From Candidatus Omnitrophota bacterium (GTDB lineage: Bacteria > Omnitrophota > Gorgyraeia > Gorgyraeales > Gorgyraeaceae): a stretch of 64,000 nucleotides of DNA. Made by a program: the position numbers and the translations under genes. Of the stretch, positions 15,355 through 60,093 are shown one piece after another. Position 1 is the stretch's first letter; each line of letters starts with the position of its first letter. The notes under the pieces are model-generated. The model worked only from the letters and a program-made list of their open reading frames with translations. It had not been told where the DNA came from and ran no database searches. The stretch is from contig JAHIYJ010000090.1 in assembly GCA_018814825.1 (NCBI GenBank), positions 1,321-65,320 of the forward strand, given 5' to 3'.

Positions 15355-15420
15355 CCTTATCGTTTACCGTGTACCGTTTACCGCACGAGACGGTACACGG
15401 TAAACTGTAAGCGAAACACG
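15355..15420. repeat. Heptamer-periodic hairpin (CGTTTAC/CGTGTAC units; 15-bp stem TTTACCGTGTACCGT / ACGGTACACGGTAAA)
   Basis: The sequence reads cgtttaccgtgtaccgtttaccgcacgagacggtacacggtaaactgtaagcgaaacacgg, lying between pilB and pilC. Confidence 0.65.
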
Positions 15421-15431
15421 GAGGTTTTAAG

Positions 15432-16646
15432 TTGCCTACTTACATTTATAAAGCCAGGGATGCCACAGGTAAGTTAGTGAAAGGCACCATGGACGCGTCC
15501 AATAGAGACGAACTTACAGAGAAACTCCAAAGAATGGGGTATATGACTACCTATGCCGCGGAGATCACTCCCGGAGTCAGGGTCGAATCTATATTTGAAA
15601 GGATGAGGAGGATAAGCGCCGAGGACATGATAATATTTAATGTCCAGCTCGCCAATATGATAAATTCAGGTATACCTATTCTGGTCTGCCTGGATACGCT
15701 GGATAAACAGATTGAAAACAGGACGCTGAGGATCACCGTCGGTAATGTGAAGAGAAATCTTGAGTCAGGCGACAGCTTCTCTCAGGCCCTGGCGAGGCAC
15801 CCGCGGGTATTCTCCAAGTTATTTATAAATATGGTAAAGACCGGTGAGGCCAGCGGAAAGCTGGATACTGTTTTGACCGGGTTTGCTGAATTTACTGAAC
15901 GACAGGAAGAGTTAAAGCAGAAGATTAAAGGTGCGCTTTTTTACCCGATCATACTTTTATTCGCCGGTATCGCGGTCACGATTTTCATAGTTACTTTTAT
16001 TATCCCTCAGTTTGCCGAGATTTTCATGAAGGTAGGCATAAAATTACCCGCGCCTACATTGATCCTTTATAGGATTGGGACGGCCATCAAGAGTTACTGG
16101 TATTTAATAGGCCTTTTTTTTGCGGTAACATGCATAGGCGTAAAATATTATATAAGGACAGAAAAAGGTAGATTTAATTTTGATAGACTTAAATTAAAAG
16201 CACCTGTGCTTGGCCCATTGTTTCGTAAAGTGGCGATATCGAGATTTGCCAGGACATTGGCGACGCTTGTCTCAAGCGGTGTTTCTATATTGGTATCACT
16301 GGATATTACAAAGGAGGTAATTGGGAATGAAGTACTGAGTCGTGTTATTACAAATGTCCGCGCTTCTGTTGAGAAAGGAGAAGGCATTGCCGAGAGCCTG
16401 AAGATAAGCGGGGAATTCCCCCAGGATACAGTGCAGATGATCTCGGTAGGAGAGGAGACAGGAAATTTAGAGGGCATGCTGAATAAGATCTCGGATTTTT
16501 ACAATATGTCTTTAGGATACACCATAAAAAAGTTGACTACTATAATAGAGCCTTTATTTTTGGTCATCATGGGGAGCATGGTGGGTTTTATCATGGCGTC
16601 GATGCTTTTACCGATGTTTGACATGATGAAGGTATTGAGACATTGA
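15432..16646 (+). CDS. pilC: Inner-membrane platform protein (GspF/PilC family), copy 1
   Basis: Apparent TTG start after GGAGG. MPTYIYKARDATGK.. plus two T2SSF repeats. 404 aa. Confidence 0.85.
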   Translation: MPTYIYKARDATGKLVKGTMDASNRDELTEKLQRMGYMTTYAAEITPGVRVESIFERMRRISAEDMIIFNVQLANMINSGIPILVCLDTLDKQIENRTLRITVGNVKRNLESGDSFSQALARHPRVFSKLFINMVKTGEASGKLDTVLTGFAEFTERQEELKQKIKGALFYPIILLFAGIAVTIFIVTFIIPQFAEIFMKVGIKLPAPTLILYRIGTAIKSYWYLIGLFFAVTCIGVKYYIRTEKGRFNFDRLKLKAPVLGPLFRKVAISRFARTLATLVSSGVSILVSLDITKEVIGNEVLSRVITNVRASVEKGEGIAESLKISGEFPQDTVQMISVGEETGNLEGMLNKISDFYNMSLGYTIKKLTTIIEPLFLVIMGSMVGFIMASMLLPMFDMMKVLRH

Positions 16647-16686
16647 TCTCGTATATCGTATGTAGTATGTCGTATATAGTATATCG
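16647..16686. repeat. Heptamer tandem repeat (TCGTATA/TCGTATG units), forward orientation
   Basis: The sequence reads tctcgtatatcgtatgtagtatgtcgtatatagtatatcg, immediately after the pilC stop. Confidence 0.65.
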
Positions 16687-16725
16687 TTTTTCATTGAACA
16701 CTGAATGCAAAAAAAGGGGGTGGTT

Positions 16726-17175
16726 ATGAGAAAAGGTTTTACACTAATTGAGCTATTGATAGTCATTGCGGTGATATCTATCCTGATCGGGATCGCTCTC
16801 CCGCGTTTTAAGGGGATGCAGGATGAAGGAAATATTGCCAAAGCAAAGGGAGAATTAAAAACGCTTCAAGTCGCAGTAGAGAGTTATTATATCCATAATA
16901 ATAATACCTATCCAGCCACAGGTTCTGCAGCGCTTGAGACAGCATTAGCCAGCGCCACCCCTAGCATCATAACTTCTGTGCCTACGGATCCTTTTCGTTC
17001 TACCGGGGCGGATTATGTATATGTAAGAGGTGGTACAAACGGCAAATACTATATTATTTATTCTGTGGGGCCGGGCGGCAATGGAAGCGCGTCTATATCG
17101 AGCAATGCAGTCAGCGAGACGAATGGCTCGAGCTGCATCTATGTCTCTAATATGGGGGAGGATGTACAGCCATAA
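16726..17175 (+). CDS. gspG: Major pseudopilin / type IV pilin, GspG-like (short MRKG leader, class III signal)
   Basis: MRKG|FTLIELLIVIAVISILIGIALP, then ..YP..LP/VPTDPF..YYIIYSVGPGGNG, which resembles the GspG C-terminal signature. The ATG at 16726 follows GGGGGTGG. The listed ORF starts earlier, at 16705. Confidence 0.65.
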   Translation: MRKGFTLIELLIVIAVISILIGIALPRFKGMQDEGNIAKAKGELKTLQVAVESYYIHNNNTYPATGSAALETALASATPSIITSVPTDPFRSTGADYVYVRGGTNGKYYIIYSVGPGGNGSASISSNAVSETNGSSCIYVSNMGEDVQP

Positions 17176-17210
17176 CTCGTATGTAGTATGTCGTACATAG
17201 CATATCGTAA
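17176..17210. repeat. Heptamer tandem repeat (forward type), left flank of the four-helix-bundle gene
   Basis: The sequence reads ctcgtatgtagtatgtcgtacatagcatatcgtaa. Confidence 0.6.
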
Positions 17211-17211
17211 T

Positions 17212-17574
17212 ATGGATAAGAAGATCAGAAGTTTTAAGGATTTGAAAATTTGGCGAAAAGGTATAGAGATTGTCAAAGATACTTACGGGCTAACAGAGAG
17301 CTTTCCAGATAAAGAATTATATGGTTTAACGTCTCAGATGAGAAAGGCAGCTGTATCTCTGCCGTCAAATATAGCTGAAGGATTTAAAAGGTATCATAAT
17401 AAAGAATATAAGCAATTTTTACATATAGCCTTAGGATCAGCGGCAGAATTGGAAACACAGTTTATAATAGCACAAGAGCTTGACTATATTAACAAGGAAG
17501 AACTCGAAAATATCTCAGAAAAGTTAGATCATCTTTCAAAGATGATAACTGCCTTAATACATAAGTTAAGATAA
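17212..17574 (+). CDS. Four-helix-bundle protein (23S rRNA intervening-sequence protein family, PF05635-like)
   Basis: FPDKELYGLTSQMRKAAVSLPSNIAEGFKR is the hallmark motif of this family. About 120 aa. It lies between inverted copies of the heptamer repeat. Confidence 0.75.
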   Translation: MDKKIRSFKDLKIWRKGIEIVKDTYGLTESFPDKELYGLTSQMRKAAVSLPSNIAEGFKRYHNKEYKQFLHIALGSAAELETQFIIAQELDYINKEELENISEKLDHLSKMITALIHKLR

Positions 17575-17963
17575 TGACATGCCTACGATATACGATATAC
17601 GATATACGATATACGAAATGTGGGTTCACTCTACTCGAGATCCTGATTACCATCATCATCCTCACAATAGGCGTGGTTACATTGACCAGCGCTTTTAGTT
17701 CAGGGCTCTTCGCCACTACCGATGTTGAGAATGTGGATCTGGCATTAAATATTGCGCAGGCAAAGATGGAGCAGATCAAGAATACAGCCTTTGCCAGTTT
17801 AGTTGACAGCGGGCCTACTGCTGATGCGAATTTCTCGAACTTTAACGTAACCGTAGATGTGGCCGAGGGCGATGATCCTATGCAGGTGGATGTTACAGTT
17901 AGTTGGAATGTTAAAGGCGGCTCGCCGAGCATTACGTTGACGACGCTGGTCGTTGATTACTGA
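17574..17963 (+). CDS. Minor pseudopilin, GspI/PilV-like; the predicted leader MTCLRYTIYDIRYTKCG is encoded by heptamer repeats
   Basis: The prepilin motif G|FTLLEILITIIILTIGVV is followed by ALNIAQAKMEQIKN. The only in-frame ATG upstream of the cleavage site is 17574, which overlaps the TAA of the previous gene as TAATG. Confidence 0.6.
   Translation: MTCLRYTIYDIRYTKCGFTLLEILITIIILTIGVVTLTSAFSSGLFATTDVENVDLALNIAQAKMEQIKNTAFASLVDSGPTADANFSNFNVTVDVAEGDDPMQVDVTVSWNVKGGSPSITLTTLVVDY
17583..17610. repeat. (CGATATA)n heptamer repeat, reverse orientation, inside the 5' coding end of the GspI-like gene
   Basis: The sequence reads cctacgatatacgatatacgatatacgaa. Confidence 0.65.
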
Positions 17964-17964
17964 T

Positions 17965-17985
17965 TATCGTATATAGTATATCGTA
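17965..17985. repeat. Heptamer repeat, forward type (TCGTATATAGTATATCG)
   Basis: Nearly the reverse complement of 18044..18060, with one mismatch. Confidence 0.6.
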
Positions 17986-17987
17986 AA

Positions 17988-18590
17988 ATGCAAAACCATA
18001 ATTCAAAACTAGGATTATTAAACCCCCAATTTTTACCCAAAAAGCGATATACGATATACGACATACGACATACGAAACAAGGTTTAACTCTCATTGAGCT
18101 AATGATAACAATCGCGATGTTCAGTATTCTGGCAGTAGTTACCGTATATATATTTCGAGCGGTTTTATTAAGCTGGTCAAGTCAGGAGACAAGGGCAGGG
18201 ATTGATATAGTCCTTGATAGAGGCATAGAAGAGATGGTGCGGGATTTAAGAGAGGCAAAAGAGATTCAATCCACTGGCGGTTATGACGAGATAAGATTTT
18301 CACAGGACCAGAGCACTTATTATATCTACTACCTTTATAATGCCAGAGATTCTTATGCTCCTCCGCCAGCCTTTGACCAGACTGTATACGAATTGAGGAA
18401 AGCGGTTTTAACAGGAGATATAAACGGAAGTTTTACGTATGGCTCAGGCCAGATTATAATAACCGATGTCCTTCCTCCTGCTGTTTCTGATTTGTCCTTG
18501 AGTGGTAATATAGTGGCTATTGACCTGAGTGTTGCCAGGGGCGATGAAGCGATTCGCTCGAGGACCGAAGTGATGCCGAGAAATCTTTGA
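17988..18590 (+). CDS. Minor pseudopilin, GspJ/PilW-like; long repeat-containing leader
   Basis: ..KKRYTIYDIRHTKQG|LTLIELMITIAMFSILAVV. The leader segment MQNHNSKLGLLNPQFLPKK is paralogous to the one in the next gene. Confidence 0.55.
   Translation: MQNHNSKLGLLNPQFLPKKRYTIYDIRHTKQGLTLIELMITIAMFSILAVVTVYIFRAVLLSWSSQETRAGIDIVLDRGIEEMVRDLREAKEIQSTGGYDEIRFSQDQSTYYIYYLYNARDSYAPPPAFDQTVYELRKAVLTGDINGSFTYGSGQIIITDVLPPAVSDLSLSGNIVAIDLSVARGDEAIRSRTEVMPRNL
18044..18078. repeat. (CGATATA/CGACATA)n heptamer repeat, reverse orientation, in-frame within the leader
   Basis: The sequence reads gcgatatacgatatacgacatacgacatacgaaac. Confidence 0.65.
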
Positions 18591-18629
18591 TTCGTATATA
18601 GCATATCGTATGTAGTATATTGTAAAATG
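18591..18629. repeat. Heptamer repeat, forward type
   Basis: The sequence reads ttcgtatatagcatatcgtatgtagtatattgtaaaatg. Confidence 0.6.
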
Positions 18630-19766
18630 ATAGACAAAAACTTAAAACCAGGATTTTTAAACAAATCTTTTTTACTACCAAACGATATACGATATACGAC
18701 ATACGATATACGAAACATGCGATATGCGAAACGAGGCTCTGTCCTGATCATGACTTTCATAATCATGGCAACTCTTATTTCTATAACTTTAGGCTTTTTA
18801 TTTATGATGTCTATACAGCTTAAAGGTTCGGGATATGATGTGGCGAGTTCAAAGGCCCTCTGGCTGGCTGAGGCGGGATTGCAGAAGGTTATTTATCAGA
18901 TCAAAAATAGCTCTAGTTTTAGAGATAATCCGACTACCATAACCGGAAATTTAGAAAATGGGGGTTATTCTGTGAGTGTGAGTAAAAATGGAATCACATA
19001 CTCGCTTAGCTCAACCGGGACAGAATCTGACATATCGAGAACAGTAGAGTTGGATGCAGTTGTCAGCTCAAATGGAGGTAGTTATCCCGATGGCGCCCCT
19101 GAGGCATTTAATTATGCCATGCATTCTTTTGGCAATCACATCAAGTTCAAAGATTCCGAGGGCACTATTAACGGAAATGTGGCCTCGGCCAACAGTGTGC
19201 AAAATTCAGGCGATCCAACGATAAACGGCATCGTAACCAGTAATTCCACCGTACCCACGCCTTTTACGGTTAATATGGCTGGTTATCAGTCTATAGCCGA
19301 TAACGTTGAGAGCAGTAATTATACTTTTACGGAAGGTAATACCTATGGCTCCTCTGGCAGCGAACAAATTTGGTATGTGCAGGGGAATGTTACGATAGAA
19401 GAAAATGTTGCTATCTATGGCACAGTTGTTGCTGAGCATAATGTCACTTTGGGCAGTGAAGATATAACAATCGATGCAGCATCTGGTTACCCCGCTCTCA
19501 TCGCAGGCAATAATATTAGCGGAGATGGATTAGAAAATAGTGCTATAAATGGGTTGATTGCCGCAGAAAACAATATTGATTTTGATAACATCAAAGATGC
19601 TACTATCAATGGGGCAATACTCGCCGGCAATAATATAACTATGAGAGATGGCGAAGATTTTACAGTTAATTACGACTCAGATATAACATCCAATCCGCCC
19701 CCATATTTTAGCGGCTATGGGGGCACTACTACTGTTACGACACAGGGTTGGAATGAGATTACATGA
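18627..19766 (+). CDS. Minor pseudopilin, GspK/PilX-like (PilX_N-like N-terminus, no Glu5), with a large N/G/T-rich C-terminal domain
   Basis: ..RYAKRGSVLIMTFIIMATLISITLGFLFMM..ALWLAEAGLQKV is PilX/GspK-type. An alternative internal start is ATG ~18717 (MRYAKRG..). Confidence 0.55.
   Translation: MIDKNLKPGFLNKSFLLPNDIRYTTYDIRNMRYAKRGSVLIMTFIIMATLISITLGFLFMMSIQLKGSGYDVASSKALWLAEAGLQKVIYQIKNSSSFRDNPTTITGNLENGGYSVSVSKNGITYSLSSTGTESDISRTVELDAVVSSNGGSYPDGAPEAFNYAMHSFGNHIKFKDSEGTINGNVASANSVQNSGDPTINGIVTSNSTVPTPFTVNMAGYQSIADNVESSNYTFTEGNTYGSSGSEQIWYVQGNVTIEENVAIYGTVVAEHNVTLGSEDITIDAASGYPALIAGNNISGDGLENSAINGLIAAENNIDFDNIKDATINGAILAGNNITMRDGEDFTVNYDSDITSNPPPYFSGYGGTTTVTTQGWNEIT
18683..18733. repeat. 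(CGATATA)n heptamer repeat, reverse orientation, 7 units
   Basis: The units read cgatata|cgatata|cgacata|cgatata|cgaaaca|tgcgata|tgcgaaa. Confidence 0.65.
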
Positions 19767-19835
19767 TCGTTTACCGTTACGGTTAACGGTAAACAGCGAG
19801 GCGAAGCCGAGCGGGTAAACGGTAAACGCAACAAG
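19767..19835. repeat. Hairpin repeats of the CGGTAAA/CGTTTAC heptamer family
   Basis: GTTTACCGTT-acggtt-AACGGTAAAC forms a perfect 10-bp stem. It is followed by gggtaaacggtaaacg. Confidence 0.6.
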
Positions 19836-19845
19836 GGATACATAA

Positions 19846-21438
19846 ATGAATGTAAGAGGGGTTTTTCAGAAAGATTACATAGTAGGGCTGGACATCGGAT
19901 CTTCTTCTATAAAATTGGCCAAATTTTTGAAAACTCCGGACGGTTTATGTCTTATAAAGACCGATATAGAAGAGGTTAGCAGCTATGCAGTTGATGAGGC
20001 CTTGCGCGGGAAAGAAATACAAAGTCTTCTAAAAAAAATTACCAGAGGGGTAGATGTAAGCAACTCTAAATTTATTGTCACTATCAATTGTCCCAAGACC
20101 GCCATAAAAAAAGCGATAGTGCCTTATATGCCAAGGACAGAATTGCGTAATGCCATAAGATTGGCGGTAAAGAATTATTTCCCGTTTCCAATAGACGACT
20201 CCTTGGTAGATTTTGAGATATCGGGCGAGGTGATTGAAAAAGGTGTTAAAAAATTTGAGGTCCTGGTCGCGACCTCCCCTAAAAAGACAGTTAACGAATT
20301 TTTATCTATATTGAAGGAAGCAGGTGTAAAACCAGTTTCATTCATTGCCGTTCCTTATGCGATGCAAAGATTAGCCCATGCATTTTATCCTGGCGAGGGC
20401 CAGACAAGGTGTTTTCTTGATATAGGCAGTTGTCATACAGAATTGGTTATATTAAAAGGAAAGGGCCTGGTTTTTTCCCGTAAGATCCCTGTTGCAGGCA
20501 ATGATATTACTAAAGAGATGACAGGAGTTTTGGTCTCGGACAAGGGCAGGACAGAGCTTTCATTGGACGAGGCTGAAAAAATAAAGCGGAAAATAGGGCT
20601 ACCTCCTGAAGGCGAATCAAAGATGATAAATGACAAGATTTCCACGACTCAAATTTTATCTATGATAAGGATGCCTTTGGAGCAATTAGTAAATGAGATA
20701 GAAAGATGTTTTGATTATTACAGGGAAGAGGCGGAAGGCGGAAAGATAGATTCGTTTGTTCTATTAGGCGGAGGCTCTTCTCTCAGGAGACTTACGGATT
20801 TTCTTTCTAAGGAATTAGGAATAGAAGTAAAGTTGTTAAGCTCCCTCGAGGGTATAAAAATTGAGCCTGGGGCAATAGACGGACGCGCGCCCGAACTACA
20901 TAGATTAGCCCTGGCTATAGGCGCGGGTTTAGGTGGGGTAAAGGGGCTTAATCTGCTGCCCCTGGAAATTAAAGAAGAGACGAAAAAAACCTTTAAACGA
21001 GCGGGCATTCAGGCCGTGGTTACAGGGGTTATTATTACTCTGGCCCTTGTCTATATCGGGATGAGAATACAGGTTACGAGTTTTCAGAAAAGGATCGCGG
21101 CCAGCAGGATAGAGATGTTAAGTTTAAAGCCCCAGATGGAACAGGTCAAGGCGCAGAATTTGACAAGCGAGATATTGCGAAATGAGCCATACTGGGAAGA
21201 CGTGTTTAGGGAGTTGAGTAATATAGTTCCTGACGATAGCTATCTTACACAATTTACCATGAAGGACAAGACCTTTAAGATGCGAGGCGTGGTTATATCC
21301 AGTGCGCCTGAAGAGATCTTGTCTGGTTTTATACTTGCGCTTGAAAAGGGTATATTTAAGGACGTGAGGCTTATTAGCACAAAAGAGATCAGAGATACGA
21401 CCGGCAATGAATTTGAATTAGAATGTCGAATCGATTAA
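19846..21438 (+). CDS. PilM-PilN fusion (MshI-like): actin-like ATPase-fold domain + TM + PilN domain
   Basis: IVGLDIGSSSIKLAKF is the PilM N-terminus. The C-terminal third has a TM segment (AVVTGVIITLALVYIG) followed by a PilN-like periplasmic domain. 530 aa. Confidence 0.75.
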   Translation: MNVRGVFQKDYIVGLDIGSSSIKLAKFLKTPDGLCLIKTDIEEVSSYAVDEALRGKEIQSLLKKITRGVDVSNSKFIVTINCPKTAIKKAIVPYMPRTELRNAIRLAVKNYFPFPIDDSLVDFEISGEVIEKGVKKFEVLVATSPKKTVNEFLSILKEAGVKPVSFIAVPYAMQRLAHAFYPGEGQTRCFLDIGSCHTELVILKGKGLVFSRKIPVAGNDITKEMTGVLVSDKGRTELSLDEAEKIKRKIGLPPEGESKMINDKISTTQILSMIRMPLEQLVNEIERCFDYYREEAEGGKIDSFVLLGGGSSLRRLTDFLSKELGIEVKLLSSLEGIKIEPGAIDGRAPELHRLALAIGAGLGGVKGLNLLPLEIKEETKKTFKRAGIQAVVTGVIITLALVYIGMRIQVTSFQKRIAASRIEMLSLKPQMEQVKAQNLTSEILRNEPYWEDVFRELSNIVPDDSYLTQFTMKDKTFKMRGVVISSAPEEILSGFILALEKGIFKDVRLISTKEIRDTTGNEFELECRID

Positions 21439-21448
21439 AGGGGCTGGG

Positions 21449-21958
21449 ATGGAACTTACTAAAGATAGAGCTGCGATAATTATAACGGGTGTGATTGCAG
21501 TAGTTACCTTGGGGGTATATCTATTTTTGTATAGGCCGGCTATTTCCAAATGCAGTGAGGCTGGTTGCGAGTGCAGGATGATTGAATCAGAAGTTTTAAG
21601 GGCCAGAGAGTCAATGTATCTTTTAAAACAGGATGCTGCGAAACGTGTATTCGTGTCAGAAAACAATATATCTGTTGCCATAGATGAGTTGACGAAACAA
21701 GGCAGGTCTAAAGGCATTAATTTTACCTCTATTACCCCGGGAAAAATCGAGAATCCTGGAGATGTCGGGTATAAGATCCTTCCTATAGACATGGAGATAG
21801 AGTCAACTTATAAGGAATTGGCGGTATTTCTGGGTTTACTGGAAGGGCTGAAGGAGAGCCTTGTTACAGTAAAGGATATTGATATTGCCTCCGAAGAGAT
21901 AAGAAGCGCAAAACTAAGGGCCAGATTGATACTGAATATGTATCTTTCATACCAATAG
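21449..21958 (+). CDS. pilO: PilO/GspM-like inner-membrane assembly protein
   Basis: N-terminal TM plus coiled-coil. Size and position match PilO (169 aa). Confidence 0.5.
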   Translation: MELTKDRAAIIITGVIAVVTLGVYLFLYRPAISKCSEAGCECRMIESEVLRARESMYLLKQDAAKRVFVSENNISVAIDELTKQGRSKGINFTSITPGKIENPGDVGYKILPIDMEIESTYKELAVFLGLLEGLKESLVTVKDIDIASEEIRSAKLRARLILNMYLSYQ

Positions 21959-22604: not shown

Positions 22605-23360
22605 ATGAATAACTCTAAGGGCATTAGTTTATTCAGTACTGTTTTGCTGATCGTATTCCTGTTGATTGTGTTTTACCTCATGGGATTCTTTTTAAGTTTC
22701 CAGATAGGCAGTTTGGATGGAGTCAGTCTTGCCTTCCTATGTGTGTTCCTTATTTTAACTTCTTTTTCTTTAGGTACGCTTATAATTTCTTTAGACCCGC
22801 CGTTTTTTAAAAACAGTCTTTCACGGTATGTATCTTTTGTGGCCCTCTTGTTATCTGTCCTTACGCTCATTACCTCTGCAGGCACAGCTGTATTCAAGGT
22901 AATAGTTCTAATAGCCCTTCCCGCACTTTTCTTCCATCTTTTTATTCTAGCAGTTCATGTAGCAAATTTTTTAAGAGAAAGAATAAGTCTGAGGCCTAAG
23001 AGGATAGTGGATTTTAGCGAAAAAAGAAGATATATGCGTATCAAAGGTTATGCGACTGCGCAATATCTGTCAAATGGGAAGAATTGGAAGGGGCTGGGTG
23101 TCTATGATATCAGTGCCTCAGGCATGAGGTTAATTATGCGGGAGGAGATGAATGTAGGCCAGAATATAGAGTTGAAAATAATCATACCCTATGACACCAG
23201 GCCGATCTTTGCTAGAGGCGAGATAATCTGGAAAAGGGAGTTTCTTTTAGAAACAAAGGTATTCCATATCGGAGTAAGATTTATAAAGATTGATTCCTCA
23301 GATGTTTTGAGGTTGTCCCTTAAGCAAGTTTATAGCTTATTTCAGGAGCATGTAACCTGA
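22605..23360 (+). CDS. Polytopic membrane protein with a C-terminal PilZ (c-di-GMP receptor) domain
   Basis: Four or five N-terminal TM segments. The PilZ motifs RRYMR (RxxxR) and DISASG (D/NxSxxG) are intact. Confidence 0.7.
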   Translation: MNNSKGISLFSTVLLIVFLLIVFYLMGFFLSFQIGSLDGVSLAFLCVFLILTSFSLGTLIISLDPPFFKNSLSRYVSFVALLLSVLTLITSAGTAVFKVIVLIALPALFFHLFILAVHVANFLRERISLRPKRIVDFSEKRRYMRIKGYATAQYLSNGKNWKGLGVYDISASGMRLIMREEMNVGQNIELKIIIPYDTRPIFARGEIIWKREFLLETKVFHIGVRFIKIDSSDVLRLSLKQVYSLFQEHVT

Positions 23361-46923: not shown

Positions 46924-48762
46924 ATGGAAGACACAGAGCTGATACAGGAACTTACTTCACAGGGGCTGCTTACTGCGGAACAGTTACAAAAAGCTGAGGC
47001 AGAGGCGACTAAGAGAAGGGTATCTCTTGCGCAGACAATCCTGGATTTGAAACTTGTCAGCAAAGAGGATTTTTATGGCATTATAGCGCAAGAGAAAGAG
47101 ATTATCTATGTAGATCTTGATACTTACCAGCCTGATGCAAACCTTAAAGAGTCTATTCCCGAAGAACTCTGCAGGGCCCATATTTTCTTCCCGATTTTTA
47201 AAATCAAGGAAACCTTAACCATAGCTACTCCAGATCCTCTGAATCTTATGATGTTGGACCAGATAGGTATGAAGATAAGCTTGCAGGTAGAGTGCGTTTA
47301 TAGCCCGGAACATGAGGTCTTAAGGGCAATAGATAGATATTACGGGAAGAAGGATTCTACCCAGGAATTGATTGAAAAGATGGGTGAGGTCTCTCTATCG
47401 CAATCAGGTACAGGCGTTTCTGCTGAAATAACAGCAGAATCGCCGATTGCCAAATTAGTAGATCTTATAATCACTCAGGCAGCCCGCGACCGCGCAAGTG
47501 ATGTTCATATTGAACCTGAAGTGGATTTCTTGCGTGTCCGTTTCCGTATTGATGGTATACTGCACGAGATCCCTTCTCCGCCGAAACACCTGGAATTAGC
47601 TATCATATCTCGGATAAAAGTCTTGTCTGGCATGGATATTGCTGAGAGCCGTGCCCCTCAAGACGGGCATTTTCAGATAGACGTAGACAATCGGGTGATT
47701 GATCTGCGTGTCTCAAGTTTTCCTACTGTAAATGGAGAGAATATAGTAATGCGTCTTTTAGACACAGGAGGTGTTCTTGCCGGGCTGGAGAAAATGGGTT
47801 TTGGTAAAGAGGCGTTAAGGAAATATGAGGAAGTTATTTTGAGTCCTTACGGGATAATTTTAAGCACCGGACCAACTGGCTCAGGTAAAACAACTACTTT
47901 ATATTCTGCTTTGATGCGGATCAACTCTGTAGATAGAAAGATTGTCACGATTGAAGATCCTGTAGAGTATCGTATTGGTCTGATTCGTCAGACGCAGGTA
48001 AATCCCAGAGCAGGACTTACCTTTGCCAATGGTTTGCGTTCTATCTTAAGGCAGGATCCGGATGTTATAATGGTTGGGGAAATCAGAGATTTGGAAACGG
48101 CAGTAATTGCTATACAGGCGGCTCTTACAGGGCATCTTGTTTTCTCTACTCTTCATACGAATGATGCGGCATCCTCCATTACCCGTTTAATCAATATGGG
48201 AGTAGAGCCTTTTCTTATCTCTGCTTCCTTGGCAGGTGTAATGGCGCAGCGTCTTATTCGTTTGATTTGTGAAGAATGCAAGGAGGCATACGAACCTTCC
48301 AAGTCCTTGGCGCAGAGATTAGGCTTGAGAAACAAAGGAAAGGTGCAATTCTTTAAGGGTAAAGGTTGCGGAAATTGCAAGGGTACAGGGTATAAAGGAC
48401 GCACCGGCATCTTTGAGCTCATGATCATGGATGATGAATTGAGAGAGATGGTTATTCAGGGTTCATCCGCACTCGCTATTAGAGAGAAGGCCTGCGAAAA
48501 AGGGATGAAACTTCTTCGCCAGGATGGTTTAGAAAAGGTGCTGGCAGGTTTAACTACCTGGGAAGAGGTTTCCAGGGTAACGGAAGAGAGATTGGATGTA
48601 AAGCCATCCATAGAGATATCGACGACACTAGAAAGAGTGGTGACAGTGCCGAAAGAGGAACCGCCGGTGTTCGAAACGACTAAGGCTGAAGTAAGAATAA
48701 AACCTGTAGAGGTCGAAGAATATCAGAAAAAGATCAGTAATTGGTTAGCCAGGAAGAAATGA
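46924..48762 (+). CDS. pilB: Type II/IV filament assembly ATPase (GspE/PilB/MshE family), copy 2
   Basis: Walker A GPTGSGKTTT. Tetracysteine motif (CEECK..CGNCKGTG). 612 aa with a C-terminal extension. Confidence 0.9.
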   Translation: MEDTELIQELTSQGLLTAEQLQKAEAEATKRRVSLAQTILDLKLVSKEDFYGIIAQEKEIIYVDLDTYQPDANLKESIPEELCRAHIFFPIFKIKETLTIATPDPLNLMMLDQIGMKISLQVECVYSPEHEVLRAIDRYYGKKDSTQELIEKMGEVSLSQSGTGVSAEITAESPIAKLVDLIITQAARDRASDVHIEPEVDFLRVRFRIDGILHEIPSPPKHLELAIISRIKVLSGMDIAESRAPQDGHFQIDVDNRVIDLRVSSFPTVNGENIVMRLLDTGGVLAGLEKMGFGKEALRKYEEVILSPYGIILSTGPTGSGKTTTLYSALMRINSVDRKIVTIEDPVEYRIGLIRQTQVNPRAGLTFANGLRSILRQDPDVIMVGEIRDLETAVIAIQAALTGHLVFSTLHTNDAASSITRLINMGVEPFLISASLAGVMAQRLIRLICEECKEAYEPSKSLAQRLGLRNKGKVQFFKGKGCGNCKGTGYKGRTGIFELMIMDDELREMVIQGSSALAIREKACEKGMKLLRQDGLEKVLAGLTTWEEVSRVTEERLDVKPSIEISTTLERVVTVPKEEPPVFETTKAEVRIKPVEVEEYQKKISNWLARKK

Positions 48763-53024: not shown

Positions 53025-53186
53025 AGTTTATTTTTCATGTTGGAAGAATTGATGATTTGGAGTATTTTTTAAATGTTATTAAAAATTTTTTAAATTAGTT
53101 GAAAATCAAGAATTAGTATGTTAAAATATATAATGTATAATTTAACCCATGTAGGTAGTTAAATAATCAATAATCTGGAGGTAATC

Positions 53187-54161
53187 ATGAACGAGAAAAG
53201 AAAATCCGTCCGTTTAAATCTTCCGACAAAAGTAGAGAGCAGATTATTAAAGGAAAACTCGATAACTGCTTCTAGTTGCTTAGGCACGGATATTAGCGCG
53301 GGAGGGATGCGCCTACGTGTCAAAAGGAGAATCGAGGCCCTGTCTCCTTTAGGGCTAAGAGTTTATCTACCTGATGAATGGCAGCCTATTTTAGTCGAAG
53401 GAGAAATTGCCTGGTTCAGGGCAATAGCCGACAGAGAGGAAGGGGATCTGCAGGGGGATTATGAGGCAGGTGTGAGGTTTTCTGAAATAAGCGGCTTCGA
53501 TAGATCTCGTATAGTAAGGTTAGTAACTATGGAAATGGAAAGACAAAGGTCTTGTGACACCAGTCCTTTGAGTAGGATTACCAGGGTAGAATTGGAGGAT
53601 AAAGAAGAGATGCTGTTGCTTGTGAAAAAAGGTATTGGAACCATAGAGCAGGGATTAAGGATAATAGATGAAAAAATAAATCTGAAAGAAGGAGGTATGC
53701 TAGATCTATTAGGCCTGGATTCGAGCGGTCAGTTGGTCATTATTAAATTAACGATTGAAGAAAACGAATCTATGCTTATCGAAGCACTGAAACACTATGA
53801 TTGGATCTTACGTAATGTATCTTTGCTAGGGCGCATTTACCGCGAAGACATTGATTTTAAACAAAATCCAAAGATAATTCTTATCGGGCCGTTATTTTCT
53901 GAGTTCTTTAAACGCCAGATTTCATACATTAAGCCGCTAAAGATAGAAGTTTTTGACTATTATTGTCTCAGTATTGACGGGCAAAAGGCCTTATTTTTTG
54001 AAAACAAAGAAACTAAAAGAGAAAGCTTTAATAGACAGGAATGGGCAGAGGACTTGTCTTTTACAGATGAACAACGATCTGTTTCGCTGGACTCAGAAGA
54101 GATTGCTGGTATAGATGAACAGCACAAAAAGATTGTGCGATGGCTTTGGAAAAGAAGGTGA
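53187..54161 (+). CDS. PilZ domain fused to a NucS/DUF91-like (PD-(D/E)xK fold) domain
   Basis: The N-terminal PilZ motifs are intact: RKSVR (RxxxR) and DISAGG (DxSxGG). The C-terminal segment is GTIEQGLRIIDEKINLKEGGMLDLLGLDSSGQLVIIKLT..LIEALKHYDWI, described in findings. Confidence 0.55.
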   Translation: MNEKRKSVRLNLPTKVESRLLKENSITASSCLGTDISAGGMRLRVKRRIEALSPLGLRVYLPDEWQPILVEGEIAWFRAIADREEGDLQGDYEAGVRFSEISGFDRSRIVRLVTMEMERQRSCDTSPLSRITRVELEDKEEMLLLVKKGIGTIEQGLRIIDEKINLKEGGMLDLLGLDSSGQLVIIKLTIEENESMLIEALKHYDWILRNVSLLGRIYREDIDFKQNPKIILIGPLFSEFFKRQISYIKPLKIEVFDYYCLSIDGQKALFFENKETKRESFNRQEWAEDLSFTDEQRSVSLDSEEIAGIDEQHKKIVRWLWKRR

Positions 54162-55921
54162 AGATAAAGGCGTTTCATCTAGCCATAGGCTTTATTTTTA
54201 TTGGCTTGAGTACTATTTTTTCTTTAAGCGGCATAAGCAGTATGCCCCGACAGTGGGAATCCAAAGCCCTGAGCTTATTGGCCAGCATTAATCCTGGGAC
54301 AAGATCTCAATCTGATATTGTGACCGTAGAAACAGATAAGTATTTTTTTCAGAAATATAACAATTTCCCTGGTGACAAAAAATTAATTCAACTTATAGAC
54401 TTACTTTTAAGGCAAGGCGTGTATTCGATTGGAATAACGACTATGCCAAGCAGAGAGAGACCTTTACTATTTCATGGCGGGTTAGAGAACCGTGTCTTTT
54501 ACTCAATTTTATTTAGAAAAATTGGTATCTTAGAGAAAAAAAAGGGTATATTTTTAGCCAAAGAAGTAAGGAGGCCTTCTCCTGCGCAGAGCTTTAAAAT
54601 AACAGAAAATATCGGCCATATAAATTATAAAGCCGAAGGTCCTCTTATAAGTTTTCCGCCAATAGTCAGTTATAAAAAGAACGATTATTTTGCATTGCCT
54701 GTAGTTTTAGCGGCTGACTATTTACATACCAGACCTTCTAATATTAAAATTCCCGTGGACAGCAAATCTGGCGCAGCATTTGTCAATATCCAGAAAAGGA
54801 GATTCGATAATTATTTGTATAAAGAAATAGAACAATCGGACTCGTTAAATCTAAAAGGTAAGATTTGCCTGATCGGTTTATCGGGAGTTGTGCAGGCACA
54901 GGCCAATTCTTTAAGTTCTATTCTTGCGGGGGATATTATCCGTTTTTGTCCTGAAGGCGTAGCTGTATCAATAAGCCTGATCTTAGGTTTGACCCTAAAT
55001 ACCCTTTTATTAAGGGTTAGACTTGTAAGATTTATCTTATTCGATCTCGGACTTTTGGTATTTTATATTTTAGTAGTTAGCCTATTGTTTATCTCCATGC
55101 ATATCTATTTCTATACGCTGGGGCCTGTGATGATTTGCCTTGGCTTTCTGCTGATCTCAGGCATAGATTGTTTGCTTAAGACAAAGAAACTGCATGGGAT
55201 TTTAAAGCCTAACTGCAAGGTAAAGATAATGTCACAGACTTTGCCACAGATTAAAGGTTTTGGTATTGGGTTTATGTATTGTCTATCCGGAGCTGATGCG
55301 CAGAAGGGTTTATGTGAGTTCGCAGTACTGTCGGATAATTGCACGGGCCTATTGATAGGAGACGTCCCTAAAAACGGGAGAGAAGCAGATATGTATAAAA
55401 AGAAATTAAGAACCGTTTTTAAGAATCAGGCCTCTCCTGATTTGGAAGCAAATCAAACTTTAGCAATAATAAATGATTTCTTGATTAAAGAGAATAAAAA
55501 GTTGTTTGCCAGCGTGGTCTATTTAATTTTAGAATCTGAAACAAAATCAGTTAGATTTTCTAATGCTGGAAGTAACCCCATAATTATATTCCGCTCTAAA
55601 CATAAGATTTTTGAGATTTTTTCTCAGGATGATATAACACCTTTAGGGGTAGTGAAGGGGGCTATCTTTCCTGAAGGATGTATTCAGCTTGAAGAAGAAG
55701 ATATAATTCTGTTATGTAATAATGGAGTAATAAAGGCAAGAAATAAACAGGAGAGGCTATTTGGCGTGGAAGGGCTGAAGGAATCTTTTGGAGCAGATGA
55801 TAAGGCCCTTTCTGCCCAAGAGCTGGCAAGAAAGGTCTTTGAGCAAATATGTAGCTTTAGTAAAGACAAGATTCTGGAAGGTGATTTACTACTTGTAACA
55901 ATAAAACCATTCAAGTCATGA
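54140..55921 (+). CDS. Membrane sensor (CHASE2-like extracytoplasmic domain + TM helices) fused to a PP2C/SpoIIE-type Ser/Thr phosphatase
   Basis: N-terminal TM segment and a roughly 250-aa extracytoplasmic domain. Three TM helices (~aa 270-330). The C-terminal PP2C-like motifs are LLIGDVPKNGREAD, NAGSNPIIIF and LLCNNGVIKARN..ERLFG. Confidence 0.55.
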   Translation: MALEKKVKIKAFHLAIGFIFIGLSTIFSLSGISSMPRQWESKALSLLASINPGTRSQSDIVTVETDKYFFQKYNNFPGDKKLIQLIDLLLRQGVYSIGITTMPSRERPLLFHGGLENRVFYSILFRKIGILEKKKGIFLAKEVRRPSPAQSFKITENIGHINYKAEGPLISFPPIVSYKKNDYFALPVVLAADYLHTRPSNIKIPVDSKSGAAFVNIQKRRFDNYLYKEIEQSDSLNLKGKICLIGLSGVVQAQANSLSSILAGDIIRFCPEGVAVSISLILGLTLNTLLLRVRLVRFILFDLGLLVFYILVVSLLFISMHIYFYTLGPVMICLGFLLISGIDCLLKTKKLHGILKPNCKVKIMSQTLPQIKGFGIGFMYCLSGADAQKGLCEFAVLSDNCTGLLIGDVPKNGREADMYKKKLRTVFKNQASPDLEANQTLAIINDFLIKENKKLFASVVYLILESETKSVRFSNAGSNPIIIFRSKHKIFEIFSQDDITPLGVVKGAIFPEGCIQLEEEDIILLCNNGVIKARNKQERLFGVEGLKESFGADDKALSAQELARKVFEQICSFSKDKILEGDLLLVTIKPFKS

Positions 55922-56131: not shown

Positions 56132-57457
56132 GTGTCGAGATTTTTGAACACTCATATGGAACAGAGACTGGTTCAAAAGCAGGTGCAGAAACTAATCTTC
56201 GGGCAAAAGATGCAGGAGTCCATGCACATCCTGCAGATGCCTTTGATAGAGCTCAAGAATCTCATAGAAAACGAAATGGAGACCAATCCCCTCCTTGAAG
56301 AAAGCCAGCTTCCTCCTTCTTCTCCGGATAGACTAAGGCATAAAATAGATAAAAACGATGTCAGGAGAGAGCTGCGGTTGACAAAACCCCTTACCCTGCA
56401 GGATCATTTGTTGAGGCAGTTGGGATTACTGGCTGCTACAGAGGAAGAGAGCGATATAGGCGAAGAGATTATAGGCAATATCGATGATGACGGGTATTTA
56501 AAGGCCGGGCTTGACGAGATCGCCCAGCCCCTGGGAGTGAACATATTAAAGATAGAGGCCATGGTAGTGGTGATACAGAGTTTTGAACCGGCAGGCGTGT
56601 GCGCAAGAGACCTGAAGGAATGTTTATTGATACAGCTAGAGGCCAATGGCAAGGAAGGTTCTATTGCATGGAAGATCGTTGAAGCCCACCTGGATGAGTG
56701 CGGTAAAAAACAGTACGCTAAGATAGCAAAGGCATTGGGGGTATCTATGGACAAGGTGCAGGCCGCCGTGGCAGAGATTGCCAGGCTCGAGCCCAAACCA
56801 GGAAGAAAATACTCTGATAAGGCTGAAACGCAATATATCGTGCCTGATATATTTGTAAAGAAAGTGGATGACGAATACCAGATATTGAGCAACCAGTTTG
56901 ATATCCCGAGCGTAAGGGTAAGTTCATTATACAGGGATATATTGAACGATAAGAATTCTGATGAGAAAACGCAGGATTATATAAGGGAAAAATTGACTGC
57001 CGCCAATTTTATGATAAAGTGCATCCGCCAGCGCCAGGAAACCATGCGCAAGATCACTGAATTCCTGGTCAAGGAACAGGGCGAATGCCTGGAAAAGGGC
57101 CGCTCGTTTATGAAGCCCCTGAACTTCGAAACCATAGCAAAGGCCATTGGCAGGCACCAGTCCACTATCTCAAGGGCCATAGCCAATAAATATATAGATA
57201 CGCCTTCCGGGATTTATGAATTAAGGGAATTTTTCAACGGCAAGATAGCACATACGAGTTCGGAAGATGACCATTCATCCACCAGCGTAAAGCTGGAGCT
57301 CAAGAATATAATAGACAATGAAGACAAGCGAAAGCCCCTGAGCGACCAGAAGCTCCAGAAGATACTGACTGATAAGGAGATAAAAATATCCCGCAGAACC
57401 ATCGCCAAATACCGCGAAGAGCTAAAGATCCTCCCGTCTTACCTTAGAAAGAACTGA
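56132..57457 (+). CDS. rpoN: RNA polymerase sigma-54 factor
   Basis: Region I is Q/L-rich (LVQKQVQKLIFGQKMQESMHILQMPLIEL). HTH is HQSTISRAIANKYI. RpoN box is SRRTIAKYREEL. 441 aa. The start could be ATG 56156. Confidence 0.9.
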   Translation: MSRFLNTHMEQRLVQKQVQKLIFGQKMQESMHILQMPLIELKNLIENEMETNPLLEESQLPPSSPDRLRHKIDKNDVRRELRLTKPLTLQDHLLRQLGLLAATEEESDIGEEIIGNIDDDGYLKAGLDEIAQPLGVNILKIEAMVVVIQSFEPAGVCARDLKECLLIQLEANGKEGSIAWKIVEAHLDECGKKQYAKIAKALGVSMDKVQAAVAEIARLEPKPGRKYSDKAETQYIVPDIFVKKVDDEYQILSNQFDIPSVRVSSLYRDILNDKNSDEKTQDYIREKLTAANFMIKCIRQRQETMRKITEFLVKEQGECLEKGRSFMKPLNFETIAKAIGRHQSTISRAIANKYIDTPSGIYELREFFNGKIAHTSSEDDHSSTSVKLELKNIIDNEDKRKPLSDQKLQKILTDKEIKISRRTIAKYREELKILPSYLRKN

Positions 57458-57575
57458 TAGGACACCAAGTCACCTCTGTTATATTAGACACACAAGGCGG
57501 TCCTTTTCTTTAAAATTATTACACACAGAACATTTCGTAAAGTTATTGACTTATGTGTGATATATATGCTAATAT

Positions 57576-58481
57576 ATGGCGGTTATGGCAAGGAAAAAGC
57601 CAAGAAGGTACTCTATCTTTCTGCTCTTTAGGGGGCTTAGTTTTATCGTATATATCCTACCCATGCGGTTAGGGATTTTTATAGGTAAGGCACTTGGGGC
57701 TCTGGCCTTTTGTATTCTCAAAAAAGAGAGAAACCTGGCTTTCTTGAATCTTGAAAGTGCGTTTGGGAATACCAAGAGCAAAAAGGAGAAAAGGCTTATT
57801 GCCAGAAAGGTCTTTGAAAACCTGGGAAAGAATTTTGTCGAGGTCATATCTCTTTCAAAATTCAATAAGGATAATATAGACGCCTATGTTAAGTGCCGGG
57901 GCCGGGAAGTGATAGACAGTCTTGTCCGACAGGGCAAGGGTGGCATAGTGCTTACGGCTCATTTCGGCAACTGGGAACTCCTGGCGCATTATTTTGCCAT
58001 AAAAGGCTACAGGGTAAATGTAATAGCCAGGCATGTCCGCATGGAGTATTTTGAGAAAATCCTGGATGGTATAAGGAAAAAGCACGGCGTTAATGTCCTT
58101 TACAGGGACTCTTCCGCCAAGGATGTCATCAGGCTGCTTAAGAATAATGAGTTCGTGGGCATAATACCGGACCAGGACATGGATAGTGTTTCAGGTGTGT
58201 TCGTGGATTTTTTCGGCAAACAAACGTATACTCCCAGCGGACCGGCTATTCTGAATCTCTTGACGGGCGTTTCCATTATTCCGTGTTTTATCGTTCGGAA
58301 TACAACCGGACATGAGATAATAATGGAACGACCTCTTGAGCTAAACTCTACAGGGGATAAAGAGAGAGATATACTGGAAAGTACTCAGCTCTACACAAAG
58401 GTCATAGAGAGTTATATAAAAAAATCTCCCGAACAATGGGTATGGTTTCACGAAAGATGGAAAACTTCCCGGGAATCATGA
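57576..58481 (+). CDS. lpxL: Kdo-lipid A secondary (lauroyl/myristoyl) acyltransferase, LpxL/LpxM family
   Basis: The HX4E active-site motif is TAHFGNWEL. N-terminal membrane anchor. 301 aa. Confidence 0.7.
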   Translation: MAVMARKKPRRYSIFLLFRGLSFIVYILPMRLGIFIGKALGALAFCILKKERNLAFLNLESAFGNTKSKKEKRLIARKVFENLGKNFVEVISLSKFNKDNIDAYVKCRGREVIDSLVRQGKGGIVLTAHFGNWELLAHYFAIKGYRVNVIARHVRMEYFEKILDGIRKKHGVNVLYRDSSAKDVIRLLKNNEFVGIIPDQDMDSVSGVFVDFFGKQTYTPSGPAILNLLTGVSIIPCFIVRNTTGHEIIMERPLELNSTGDKERDILESTQLYTKVIESYIKKSPEQWVWFHERWKTSRES

Positions 58482-59326
58482 TAAAAGTGAAGGTCTTGTT
58501 TTTGATATCGGCCGTGATTATATGCCCTGTATGCATGGCGCAGGAGGATAATAAGGCGGCTGATCAGGAGATCAACGGTTTTTCTCTTGTGCAATATAGT
58601 GACTCCGGTGACAAGAAGTGGGAACTGAACGGACGATCAGCGGAACTGGAAGAAAATAGCGTAAAGATAGATGATGTCTCCATCTTAGCGTCAGGAGATG
58701 AAACGTTTCTTAAATTAAAGGCGAGAGAGGGTAATTTTGACAGGGATGAGAGCCTAGCGCGTCTTAAGAAAGACGTTGTCCTGAAAACAACAGACGGCAT
58801 TACTATCAAAACAGACGCGCTCAACTGGGATGCTGAGGCAAAGAACGTTTTTACGGAAGAACCTGTAAACATAAAAAGGGCGGATTTCGAGGTCAATGGC
58901 AGGGGCGCCACCTGTGATCTGGAGAATAAGACAGCTGAGGTAAAAAAAGACGTGACGGCAAACATTAACGCCGCTATGCCAGCGTATATGGCTGCTGTAA
59001 GCGGTGATAGACAGAAAACAGTAATAACCTGTGACGGCCCGCTCGAGATAAATTACAGCAAAAACAAAGCCTCTTTTCTAAATAACGTTAAAGTCGAAGA
59101 TTCTCAGGGTAATATACTGGCGGACAGGATAGATGTTTATTTCGATGCTGGCTCAAGACGCGTAAAGTGCGTTGTGGCGAGAGGCGGCGTGGAGATTATT
59201 AACGGAGGAAATGTTACTTACAGTGAAAAGGCCATATATCTTGTTGATGAGGGCCGGGTGATTTTGCCAAAAAGGCCCAAATTAGTAATCCAAAGCGAAC
59301 CAAATCTCAAACCCGCATTGCAATAG
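58478..59326 (+). CDS. lptA: Periplasmic LPS-transport protein of the LptA/LptC (OstA-like) family
   Basis: Signal peptide (MIKVKVLFLISAVIICPVCMA). The OstA-like beta-jellyroll repeats have the ..TGN..L pattern, and the gene sits immediately upstream of lptB. At 283 aa it is longer than a typical LptA and may be an LptC-LptA fusion. ATG 58478 overlaps the upstream stop. The listed 58436 start is inside the preceding gene. Confidence 0.6.
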   Translation: MIKVKVLFLISAVIICPVCMAQEDNKAADQEINGFSLVQYSDSGDKKWELNGRSAELEENSVKIDDVSILASGDETFLKLKAREGNFDRDESLARLKKDVVLKTTDGITIKTDALNWDAEAKNVFTEEPVNIKRADFEVNGRGATCDLENKTAEVKKDVTANINAAMPAYMAAVSGDRQKTVITCDGPLEINYSKNKASFLNNVKVEDSQGNILADRIDVYFDAGSRRVKCVVARGGVEIINGGNVTYSEKAIYLVDEGRVILPKRPKLVIQSEPNLKPALQ

Positions 59327-59343
59327 ATTTGCAATGCGGGTTT
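59309..59343. repeat. Second copy of the AAACCCGCATTGCAA 15-bp-arm palindrome (centre TAGAT), spanning the lptA stop codon
   Basis: Identical arms to 9086..9120. Both copies sit at junctions within LPS operons. Confidence 0.7.
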
Positions 59344-59358
59344 GATGAGGATAAAGAC

Positions 59359-60093
59359 ATGATAGACAATATTCATTTGTTGACTATAGAAAACCTCAGG
59401 AAGGCCTATGACGGCAAGACAGTCGTGGATGGCGTAAACATGAAGATCAAGAGAGGAGAGGTCGTGGGGCTGCTCGGGCCTAATGGCGCTGGGAAGACTA
59501 CCACGTTTTATATGGTGGTAGGTATGCTCAGGCCTGATGACGGAAGGATAATATTTGACGGTAATGATATAACCAAGCTGCCCATGCATATGCGTTCGCG
59601 AAACGGAATAGGCTATCTGTCTCAGGAACCTTCCGTATTCAGGAAGCTTACGGTCGAGGAAAATATAATGGCTATACTGGAGACCCTGGATCTACCGCGG
59701 TCTGTCAGGAAGAAAAGGCTGGAAGAGTTACTGAACGAATTAGACATAGCCCGACTTGCCGAGAAAAAGGCGTATATGCTTTCAGGAGGTGAGCGAAGGC
59801 GCCTGGAAATAACAAGGGCTCTCGTGACGAACCCTTTGTTTATACTGCTTGATGAGCCTTTCAGCGGCATAGACCCTATCGCGGTTTCTGACGCCCAGGA
59901 GATAATATCCGACCTGAAAAGAAAAGGCCTTGGCATTCTTCTTACCGACCACAACGTTAGAGAAACACTTGAAATAACGGACTATTCGTATATAATGGCA
60001 GAGGGAAGAATACTTATATCAGGCAATGCCGAGGAATTGACAAAAGATCCAAAGGCGCGCGAGATTTATCTGGGCGAGAAGTTTAGGATGTAA
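59359..60093 (+). CDS. lptB: LPS export ABC transporter ATP-binding protein
   Basis: Walker A GPNGAGKTT. Signature LSGGERRRLEI. 244 aa. ATG 59359 follows GAGGA. The listed 59329 start lies inside the palindrome. Confidence 0.85.
   Translation: MIDNIHLLTIENLRKAYDGKTVVDGVNMKIKRGEVVGLLGPNGAGKTTTFYMVVGMLRPDDGRIIFDGNDITKLPMHMRSRNGIGYLSQEPSVFRKLTVEENIMAILETLDLPRSVRKKRLEELLNELDIARLAEKKAYMLSGGERRRLEITRALVTNPLFILLDEPFSGIDPIAVSDAQEIISDLKRKGLGILLTDHNVRETLEITDYSYIMAEGRILISGNAEELTKDPKAREIYLGEKFRM

Follow-up and report, generated by a model that had tools for sequence, protein, structure and literature searches.

A PilZ protein with a NucS-like, probably non-catalytic nuclease-fold domain and its CHASE2-PP2C-like gene partner in Candidatus Omnitrophota

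The stretch of DNA analysed here, hereafter the window (64,000 nucleotides of a Candidatus Omnitrophota contig), encodes a PilZ protein whose C-terminal domain has the fold of the NucS nuclease domain without its catalytic pair, and whose gene is strictly paired with that of a CHASE2-PP2C-like membrane protein. The reading that we consider the best, with a probability of about 55%, is that the protein acts as a c-di-GMP-sensing, non-enzymatic adaptor in complex with its co-translated CHASE2-PP2C-like membrane sensor, and that the output of this complex is regulated binding. The combination of a PilZ and a NucS_C-like domain is rare and lineage-restricted, and it appears to be undescribed. It adds an output domain not previously described to the set of PilZ c-di-GMP receptors, and together with its partner gene it makes up a two-gene module that is strictly conserved in Omnitrophota, a phylum for which hardly any experimental biology exists.

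The gene and its N-terminal PilZ domain

An earlier note, made from the sequence alone, had placed the open reading frame at 53187-54161 on the forward strand, and these coordinates proved exact (Table 1). The product is identical to an entry from a Candidatus Omnitrophica MAG (P0001), whose database name is 'PilZ domain-containing protein' only; annotation pipelines overlook the second domain. The gene is preceded by an AT-rich gap of 162 bp, which holds a sigma-70-like match, and a similar gap of 125 bp lies 5' of its counterpart at the orthologous locus L001. The match hints, if weakly, at a possible promoter of its own for the two-gene unit.

Table 1. Position of the PilZ-NucS_C-like gene, its partner gene and their features in the window.
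Feature	Position	Strand	Details
Sigma-70-like promoter match, TTGAAA-17-TAAAAT with TG	53099..53127	+	Consensus scan
Shine-Dalgarno sequence GGAGG	53177..53181	+	5 nt before ATG; sequence read
PilZ + NucS_C-like gene, complete	53187..54161	+	324 aa plus stop, ATG start; open reading frame list
PilZ domain, residues 3-113	53193..53525	+	Pfam PF07238
RxxxR c-di-GMP-binding motif, R5-K-S-V-R9	53199..53213	+	Sequence; residues 5-9
(D/N)xSxxG c-di-GMP-binding motif, D35-I-S-A-G-G40	53289..53306	+	Sequence; residues 35-40
NucS_C-like PD-(D/E)xK-fold domain, residues 139-274, predicted non-catalytic	53601..54008	+	
D173 (NucS D160), retained	53703..53705	+	142/152 family members, all fused homologues
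K187-L-T189 in place of the NucS E174-x-K176 catalytic pair	53745..53753	+	Alignment
Acidic, low-confidence linker, residues 275-303, probably disordered	54009..54095	+	pLDDT 59-69; net charge -4
Conserved basic/aromatic C-terminal helix (…DEQHKKIVRWLWKRR)	54096..54158	+	Predicted helix, model residues 182-198
Overlap of 22 nt, PilZ-NucS_C-like gene end and CHASE2-PP2C-like gene start	54140..54161	+	Translational coupling
CHASE2-SpoIIE/PP2C-like partner gene	54140..55921	+	Pfam; alignment with SpoIIE 5mqh
Partner layout: TM1 9-33, periplasmic CHASE2 31-248, three TM ~273-348, cytoplasmic SpoIIE/PP2C-like 399-589			

The N-terminal domain reaches 40 bits against the Pfam gathering cut-off of 22.5 (E=5e-10), and both binding motifs, which had been read as intact, are present. 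Judged by its sequence, the product is a bona fide PilZ protein and is predicted to bind c-di-GMP. R5 and R9 are invariant in all eight PilZ-fused homologues. The second motif divides the homologues into a long subclade with DIS..G and a short subclade with [ND]IGGGG; since Gly takes the place of the Ser of DxSxxG in the latter, c-di-GMP binding may differ there. The canonical PilZ domain with both motifs is shared with other PilZ receptors that have a fused or bound partner (YcgR, MapZ-CheR1, Alg44, BcsA, MrkH and PlzA), and the likely common mode of action is ligand-dependent binding to protein or nucleic acid. In contrast to all of these, the output domain here is a nuclease fold and the gene is obligately paired with that of a CHASE2-PP2C-like membrane protein.

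A NucS-related domain at the C terminus

Taken alone, the product scores 18 bits against Pfam NucS_C (PF01939), below the gathering score of 24, and its C-terminal half matches the PDB entry 2vld with E=0.32; its relative P0005 passes the same Pfam threshold (27.3 bits vs 24). Residues 125-324 of the product and two orthologues served as the profile for an exhaustive search, which retrieved a family of 677 representative clusters, defined at 50% identity, at E≤0.001 (317 at E≤1e-10), and none of the ten cluster names looked up was informative. Of 149 family representatives, 69 match Pfam NucS_C by themselves, the best with 1.8e-12. Moreover, a profile of 74 family sequences, compared with all PDB sequences, matches NucS (2vld) with E=6.2e-11 and EndoMS (5gke) with 6.8e-8. 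The C-terminal domain modelled by AlphaFold2 with the same number of family sequences reached a pLDDT of 88.7, with values >90 over residues 125-274; this model superseded a full-length one from a 3-sequence alignment, which was unusable (pLDDT 39.9). NucS ranks first in the fold search, and Can2/Card1, Cap4 and NucC are also among the matches. The domain is a homologue with the fold of the NucS nuclease domain: the NucS/DUF91 PD-(D/E)xK fold proposed earlier holds, NucS and not an unrelated fold being the top match.

Compared with NucS/EndoMS (PF01939, formerly DUF91; 2vld, 5gke), the PilZ domain replaces the N-terminal DNA-binding/dimerisation domain. The NCBIfam equivalog model for NucS (NF003270) matches residues 142-205 only, at 18.5 bits against a cut-off of 216. 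Since the product fails this cut-off and has neither the NucS N-terminal domain nor the E-x-K pair (see below), it is classed as a divergent homologue of the NucS nuclease domain and not as an orthologue. The candidate defence family PDC-S11 of PADLOC also gave a weak match to residues 126-192 (E=2.8e-6, profile positions 12-78 of 358), which probably reflects a shared NucS-like N-terminal part.

Beyond the NucS_C-like domain, a basic/aromatic C-terminal helix with the pattern DEQxKxIxxWLWKKR occurs in the subclade of 317-324 aa only, where it is conserved in five homologues and kept even at a homologue with only 4 nt of gene overlap. The subclade of ~300 aa, the one with Gly in the second PilZ motif, has no such helix.

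Loss of the catalytic motif

D160, E174 and K176 of NucS align with D173, K187 and T189 of the product; the E-x-K pair thus reads K-x-T, exactly the substitution seen in the first reading of the sequence. In the QxxxY motif of NucS, Q is replaced by E199, and Y204 is retained. At positions 187/189 the eight PilZ-fused homologues have K/T, E/T, H/K, E/A, E/A, Q/L, Q/L and E/L, so that the complete D…[DE]xK of an active PD-(D/E)xK site is found in none of them. D178 is retained almost universally, like D173, and these two residues could provide residual metal or ligand binding. K139, E141, D161, D173 and K267 are the invariant charged residues.

Because positions 187 and 189 drift freely in a domain whose other parts are well conserved, the domain is probably non-catalytic, as the earlier note had also concluded from the single sequence. 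Its caveat that the active site might have migrated has become weaker, both through this variability and because the family comparison revealed no alternative Lys peculiar to degenerate members. Elsewhere in the domain core just one Lys, K267, is invariant, and since it is as frequent in members with the canonical Lys and an intact motif, it does not represent a compensating migration of the active site. BamHI-like sites without Lys exist, and the loss of activity is therefore not proven for every member.

Occurrence of the fusion and the conserved gene pair

The fusion was recovered as seven clusters by a five-sequence profile among 5.8 billion clusters, and the exhaustive search added P0006, which makes about eight, a small sample that is metagenomic throughout. 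All named fusion clusters belong to Candidatus Omnitrophota (Candidatus Omnitrophica), and among 185,579 species-representative genomes the fusion is carried by two, both of them Omnitrophota. A survey of PilZ architectures (10.1101/814665) does not mention PilZ with NucS or another nuclease, literature searches found no description of the fusion, and database names are uninformative; the first impression that this architecture is not a described one thus appears to be correct.

At all eight informative loci, a CHASE2-SpoIIE/PP2C gene with 31-58% identity lies directly downstream of the PilZ gene. These eight include the truncated loci L007 and L110, whose fragments cluster with the CHASE2-PP2C family, and leave out L004, which is too truncated and has a weak CHASE2-PP2C match. 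The start of the downstream gene overlaps the end of the PilZ gene by 22 nt in the window and at L001, by 53 nt at L006, 50 nt at L014, 16 nt at L015 and 8 nt at L016.

The CHASE2-PP2C-like partner

Pfam recognises both domains of the partner, SpoIIE with 91.7 bits (threshold 25) and CHASE2 with 39.4 bits (threshold 26.3). A single-sequence PDB search with its PP2C-like domain gave no match; a profile of seven such partner domains aligns with SpoIIE 5mqh at E=1.2e-5. In SpoIIE the metals are held by D628, D746, D795 and the carbonyl of G629 (PMC5468089). All seven partners have Asp at the D628 position (D408 in the window). The equivalent of D746 is N528 in the window and Ser in the six others, that of D795 is G581 in the window and E, D, Q, E, E and Q in the others, and an equivalent of D796 is present in six of the seven. 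Two MAFFT modes reproduced this mapping, in which the partner from the window does not have the full metal-coordinating Asp triad. With the equivalents of D746 and D795 substituted, the partner may be a pseudophosphatase or a non-canonical enzyme, as far as three positions can tell, and Asn, Ser or Glu could yet coordinate metal in the PP2C-like domain. The domains and the position of the 'CHASE2-PP2C phosphatase' of the earlier note were thus confirmed, with the correction that in this 'phosphatase' the canonical metal ligands are partly missing.

A SpoIIE-family fold on a sensor domain is common to the partner, RsbU/SpoIIE and RssB. The last, a receiver plus pseudo-PP2C adaptor, is presumably an example of a PP2C-fold protein used without catalysis; the loss of metal ligands is what the partner has in common with such adaptors, and its own inactivity would be a further likeness. 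The partner differs from RsbU, SpoIIE and RssB in its input, a CHASE2 transmembrane sensor, and from RsbU/SpoIIE in having a PilZ-NucS_C-like protein in the place of the STAS protein or sigma factor.

The metal-ligand positions also bear on an alternative in which the CHASE2-PP2C protein works as an active Ser/Thr phosphatase and has the PilZ-NucS_C-like protein as its phospho-substrate or its c-di-GMP-dependent regulator, comparable to the STAS proteins in RsbU/SpoIIE partner switching or to MapZ on CheR1. Such a relationship would be in keeping with the strictly kept, overlapping gene pair, the SpoIIE score of 91.7 bits, the invariant D628 and frequent D796 equivalents and the conserved Ser residues of the fused proteins (S102 and S107 in 8/8, S238 in 7/8). 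However, the D746 equivalent is Asn or Ser in all seven partners, that of D795 is Gly in the window, and no kinase is conserved in the unit; we therefore regard an active phosphatase as doubtful.

The wider NucS_C-like family

A degenerate DNA pattern for the family motif P-R-x-x-L-[IV]-A-P-x-F-S, which fixes Ser as TCN and may bias which subfamilies were sampled, yielded 120 metagenomic loci with ~97 true members. Once the earlier loci were added, the non-redundant set comprised 84 loci (L001-L138), whose neighbours were clustered without prior assumptions. The intact D…[DE]xK is present at 26 of the 84, and across the family the complete catalytic motif is kept by about one member in three. 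None of these 26 has any of the recurrent neighbours, which are found with the 58 degenerate members: a ParA/MinD-like ATPase fused to a CBM48 glycogen-binding module (26 loci, mostly adjacent and on the same strand), a GT4/GT5 glycogen-synthase-like enzyme (13 loci), GH57 (11 loci), PGK (10 loci), PP2C-like proteins (7 loci) and a second ParA-like protein (5 loci). The NucS/DUF91 nuclease domain thus has a large unnamed sister family in which motif loss accompanies the entry into operons linked to ParA/MinD, glycogen and PP2C. This coincidence speaks for an adaptor function of the domain in the window's protein, and the family clearly illustrates how a nuclease fold has become an adaptor, the pattern of its degenerate members being what reuse of a dead fold would produce. 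A Rosetta-stone fusion of the NucS_C-like domain to PP2C was not found among the 149 representatives, nor a ParA-like gene or a second family member in the window.

Several arrangements within the family were observed in passing. The large subgroup linked to ParA-CBM48 (L008 4792-6604; L011 1143-2863; L131, L092, L134) has a degenerate D…D-x-D/E and an N-terminal R-K-R-L-G-R-G-L-E-D-V-S peptide, which we take to resemble the ParA-stimulating N-terminus of ParB, and GT4/GT5 and GH57 genes are often nearby; a ParA-based system for the positioning of glycogen granules is possible. The closest non-PilZ relatives of the product are P0007 and P0005 (L018 1-3222 / L017 1-3296). The former is found in the order [CBM30 + PP2C-like]-[divergent ParA-like]-[NucS_C-like], where the CBM30-PP2C-like neighbour has H/C/N at the three metal-ligand positions, and the latter in the order [ParA-like fragment]-[NucS_C-like]-GvpK/GvpL-F gas-vesicle genes. 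Another fusion to a signalling module is P0130 (463 aa; L012 6001-7392), with an N-terminal NucS_C-like domain and a receiver domain at 332-442, which adjoins a sigma-54 activator.

The family comparison is also relevant to the idea of a c-di-GMP-controlled nucleic-acid-binding regulator, with a logic similar to that of MrkH or PlzA, in which the dead nuclease domain still binds DNA and is held or released by the membrane partner. Nucleic-acid binding has precedents among PilZ proteins. The fold is ancestrally DNA-binding, with the full motif still in about a third of the family, and the basic residues common to the intact members are kept (R158, R/K229, R243 and K267). The net charge of -2 and pI of 5.5 of the domain are uninformative on DNA binding, since the whole family is acidic, intact-motif members included. 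On the other hand, the protein has no HTH, a conserved DNA target is lacking, and the adjacency to rpoN is not conserved (see below), which makes such a regulator unlikely.

Neighbourhood of the gene pair

The neighbours listed in the earlier note, a TPR/Zn-ribbon protein, the CHASE2-SpoIIE protein and rpoN, are all as described. In the window (56132-60093, forward strand), rpoN stands between the CHASE2 gene and the genes for a lipid A acyltransferase, an LptC-like protein and LptB. The proposed tie of this regulatory node to rpoN and the filament system did not hold, since the adjacency is not conserved and the CHASE2-PP2C gene is the only conserved partner. The pair is flanked by an MSH-type type IV pilus cluster in the window and at L001, by WbqC/glycosyltransferases and an Alginate_exp porin at L006, L014 and L016, by an ABC transporter at L015 and by permeases at L004. 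Since these flanks differ, the conserved unit is the two-gene module, and neither the pilus cluster nor rpoN is part of it. A functional link to rpoN was rejected because the gene, 3' of the pair in the window, is missing from that position at the orthologous locus L001.

The same neighbourhoods speak to the possibility that the protein serves the adjacent MSH-type type IV pilus system alone, as an accessory through which c-di-GMP is coupled to pilus assembly. In the window and at L001-L003 the gene lies directly 3' of an RR-MshE ATPase-AAA_22-T2SSF-TPR cluster, and a PilZ protein likewise follows the other pilus-like cluster of the window. Nevertheless, at L004, L006, L014, L015 and L016 the pair is found in unrelated neighbourhoods, and between it and the pilus genes lies the 162-bp gap with its promoter-like site, so that a role restricted to the pilus is improbable.

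An active c-di-GMP-gated nuclease, as suggested by the joining of a sensor to a PD-(D/E)xK fold, by the fold matches to Can2/Card1, Cap4 and NucC of defence systems and by the weak PDC-S11 match (E=2.8e-6), was rejected as most improbable, because the catalytic positions are not conserved and the motif is incomplete in all eight homologues, the operon is a conserved one of housekeeping type and not a variable defence island, and the family members with an intact motif are those without conserved neighbours. Can2/Card1 (CARF), Cap4 (SAVED) and NucC share with the product the layout of a messenger sensor joined to a restriction-endonuclease fold; these are, however, active nucleases of defence islands, whereas the gene at 53187-54161 has a PilZ in place of a CARF or SAVED sensor, no intact catalytic site and a place in a conserved signalling operon.

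Proposed mode of action

The non-enzymatic adaptor that we favour would be a cytoplasmic receptor in which the N-terminal PilZ domain binds c-di-GMP and the NucS-type domain, devoid of E-x-K, serves as a non-catalytic module for binding or assembly. Through the overlapping reading frames, the PilZ protein would be made together with its membrane partner and would most likely act in a stoichiometric complex with it, a physical association in which neither enzyme fold would be active. The pair would then work as a largely non-enzymatic switch that combines an envelope or extracellular cue, perceived by CHASE2, with the intracellular level of c-di-GMP, perceived by PilZ, with the dead nuclease domain providing the output in the form of regulated binding. 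In the long subclade this binding might be aided by the basic/aromatic helix at the C terminus, whose location would let it reach the membrane or the partner.

A more specific version of this adaptor can be offered tentatively, as a new type of two-component switch made of two dead enzymes. The membrane pseudo-PP2C would hold or release the PilZ-pseudonuclease according to the envelope signal and c-di-GMP, and the freed domain would bind DNA or a cellular machine. Across the family, the same fold would repeatedly have been reused as a module that partners ParA/MinD ATPases and PP2C-like proteins, perhaps in glycogen granule positioning.

Other c-di-GMP-related features of the window

A second PilZ protein is encoded at 22605-23360 on the forward strand (251 aa; PilZ at 139-233, 49.9 bits), with a hydrophobic and probably membrane-spanning N-terminal half. 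As a relative of the NucS_C-like domain it was rejected, the two being unrelated (hhalign probability 0.3). Upstream, its gene borders directly on the first type IV pilus-like cluster (13660-21958); downstream come two histidine kinases and a sigma-54 activator. Both filament clusters of the window thus have a PilZ protein after them. A simple motif scan of the window found no GGDEF or HD-GYP motif and few EAL-pattern matches. Both pilus ATPases (13660-15354 and 46924-48762, forward strand) contain an MshEN domain (78 and 67.6 bits), a family which, we assume, binds c-di-GMP in MshE, and the messenger may thus have several points of action in this region.
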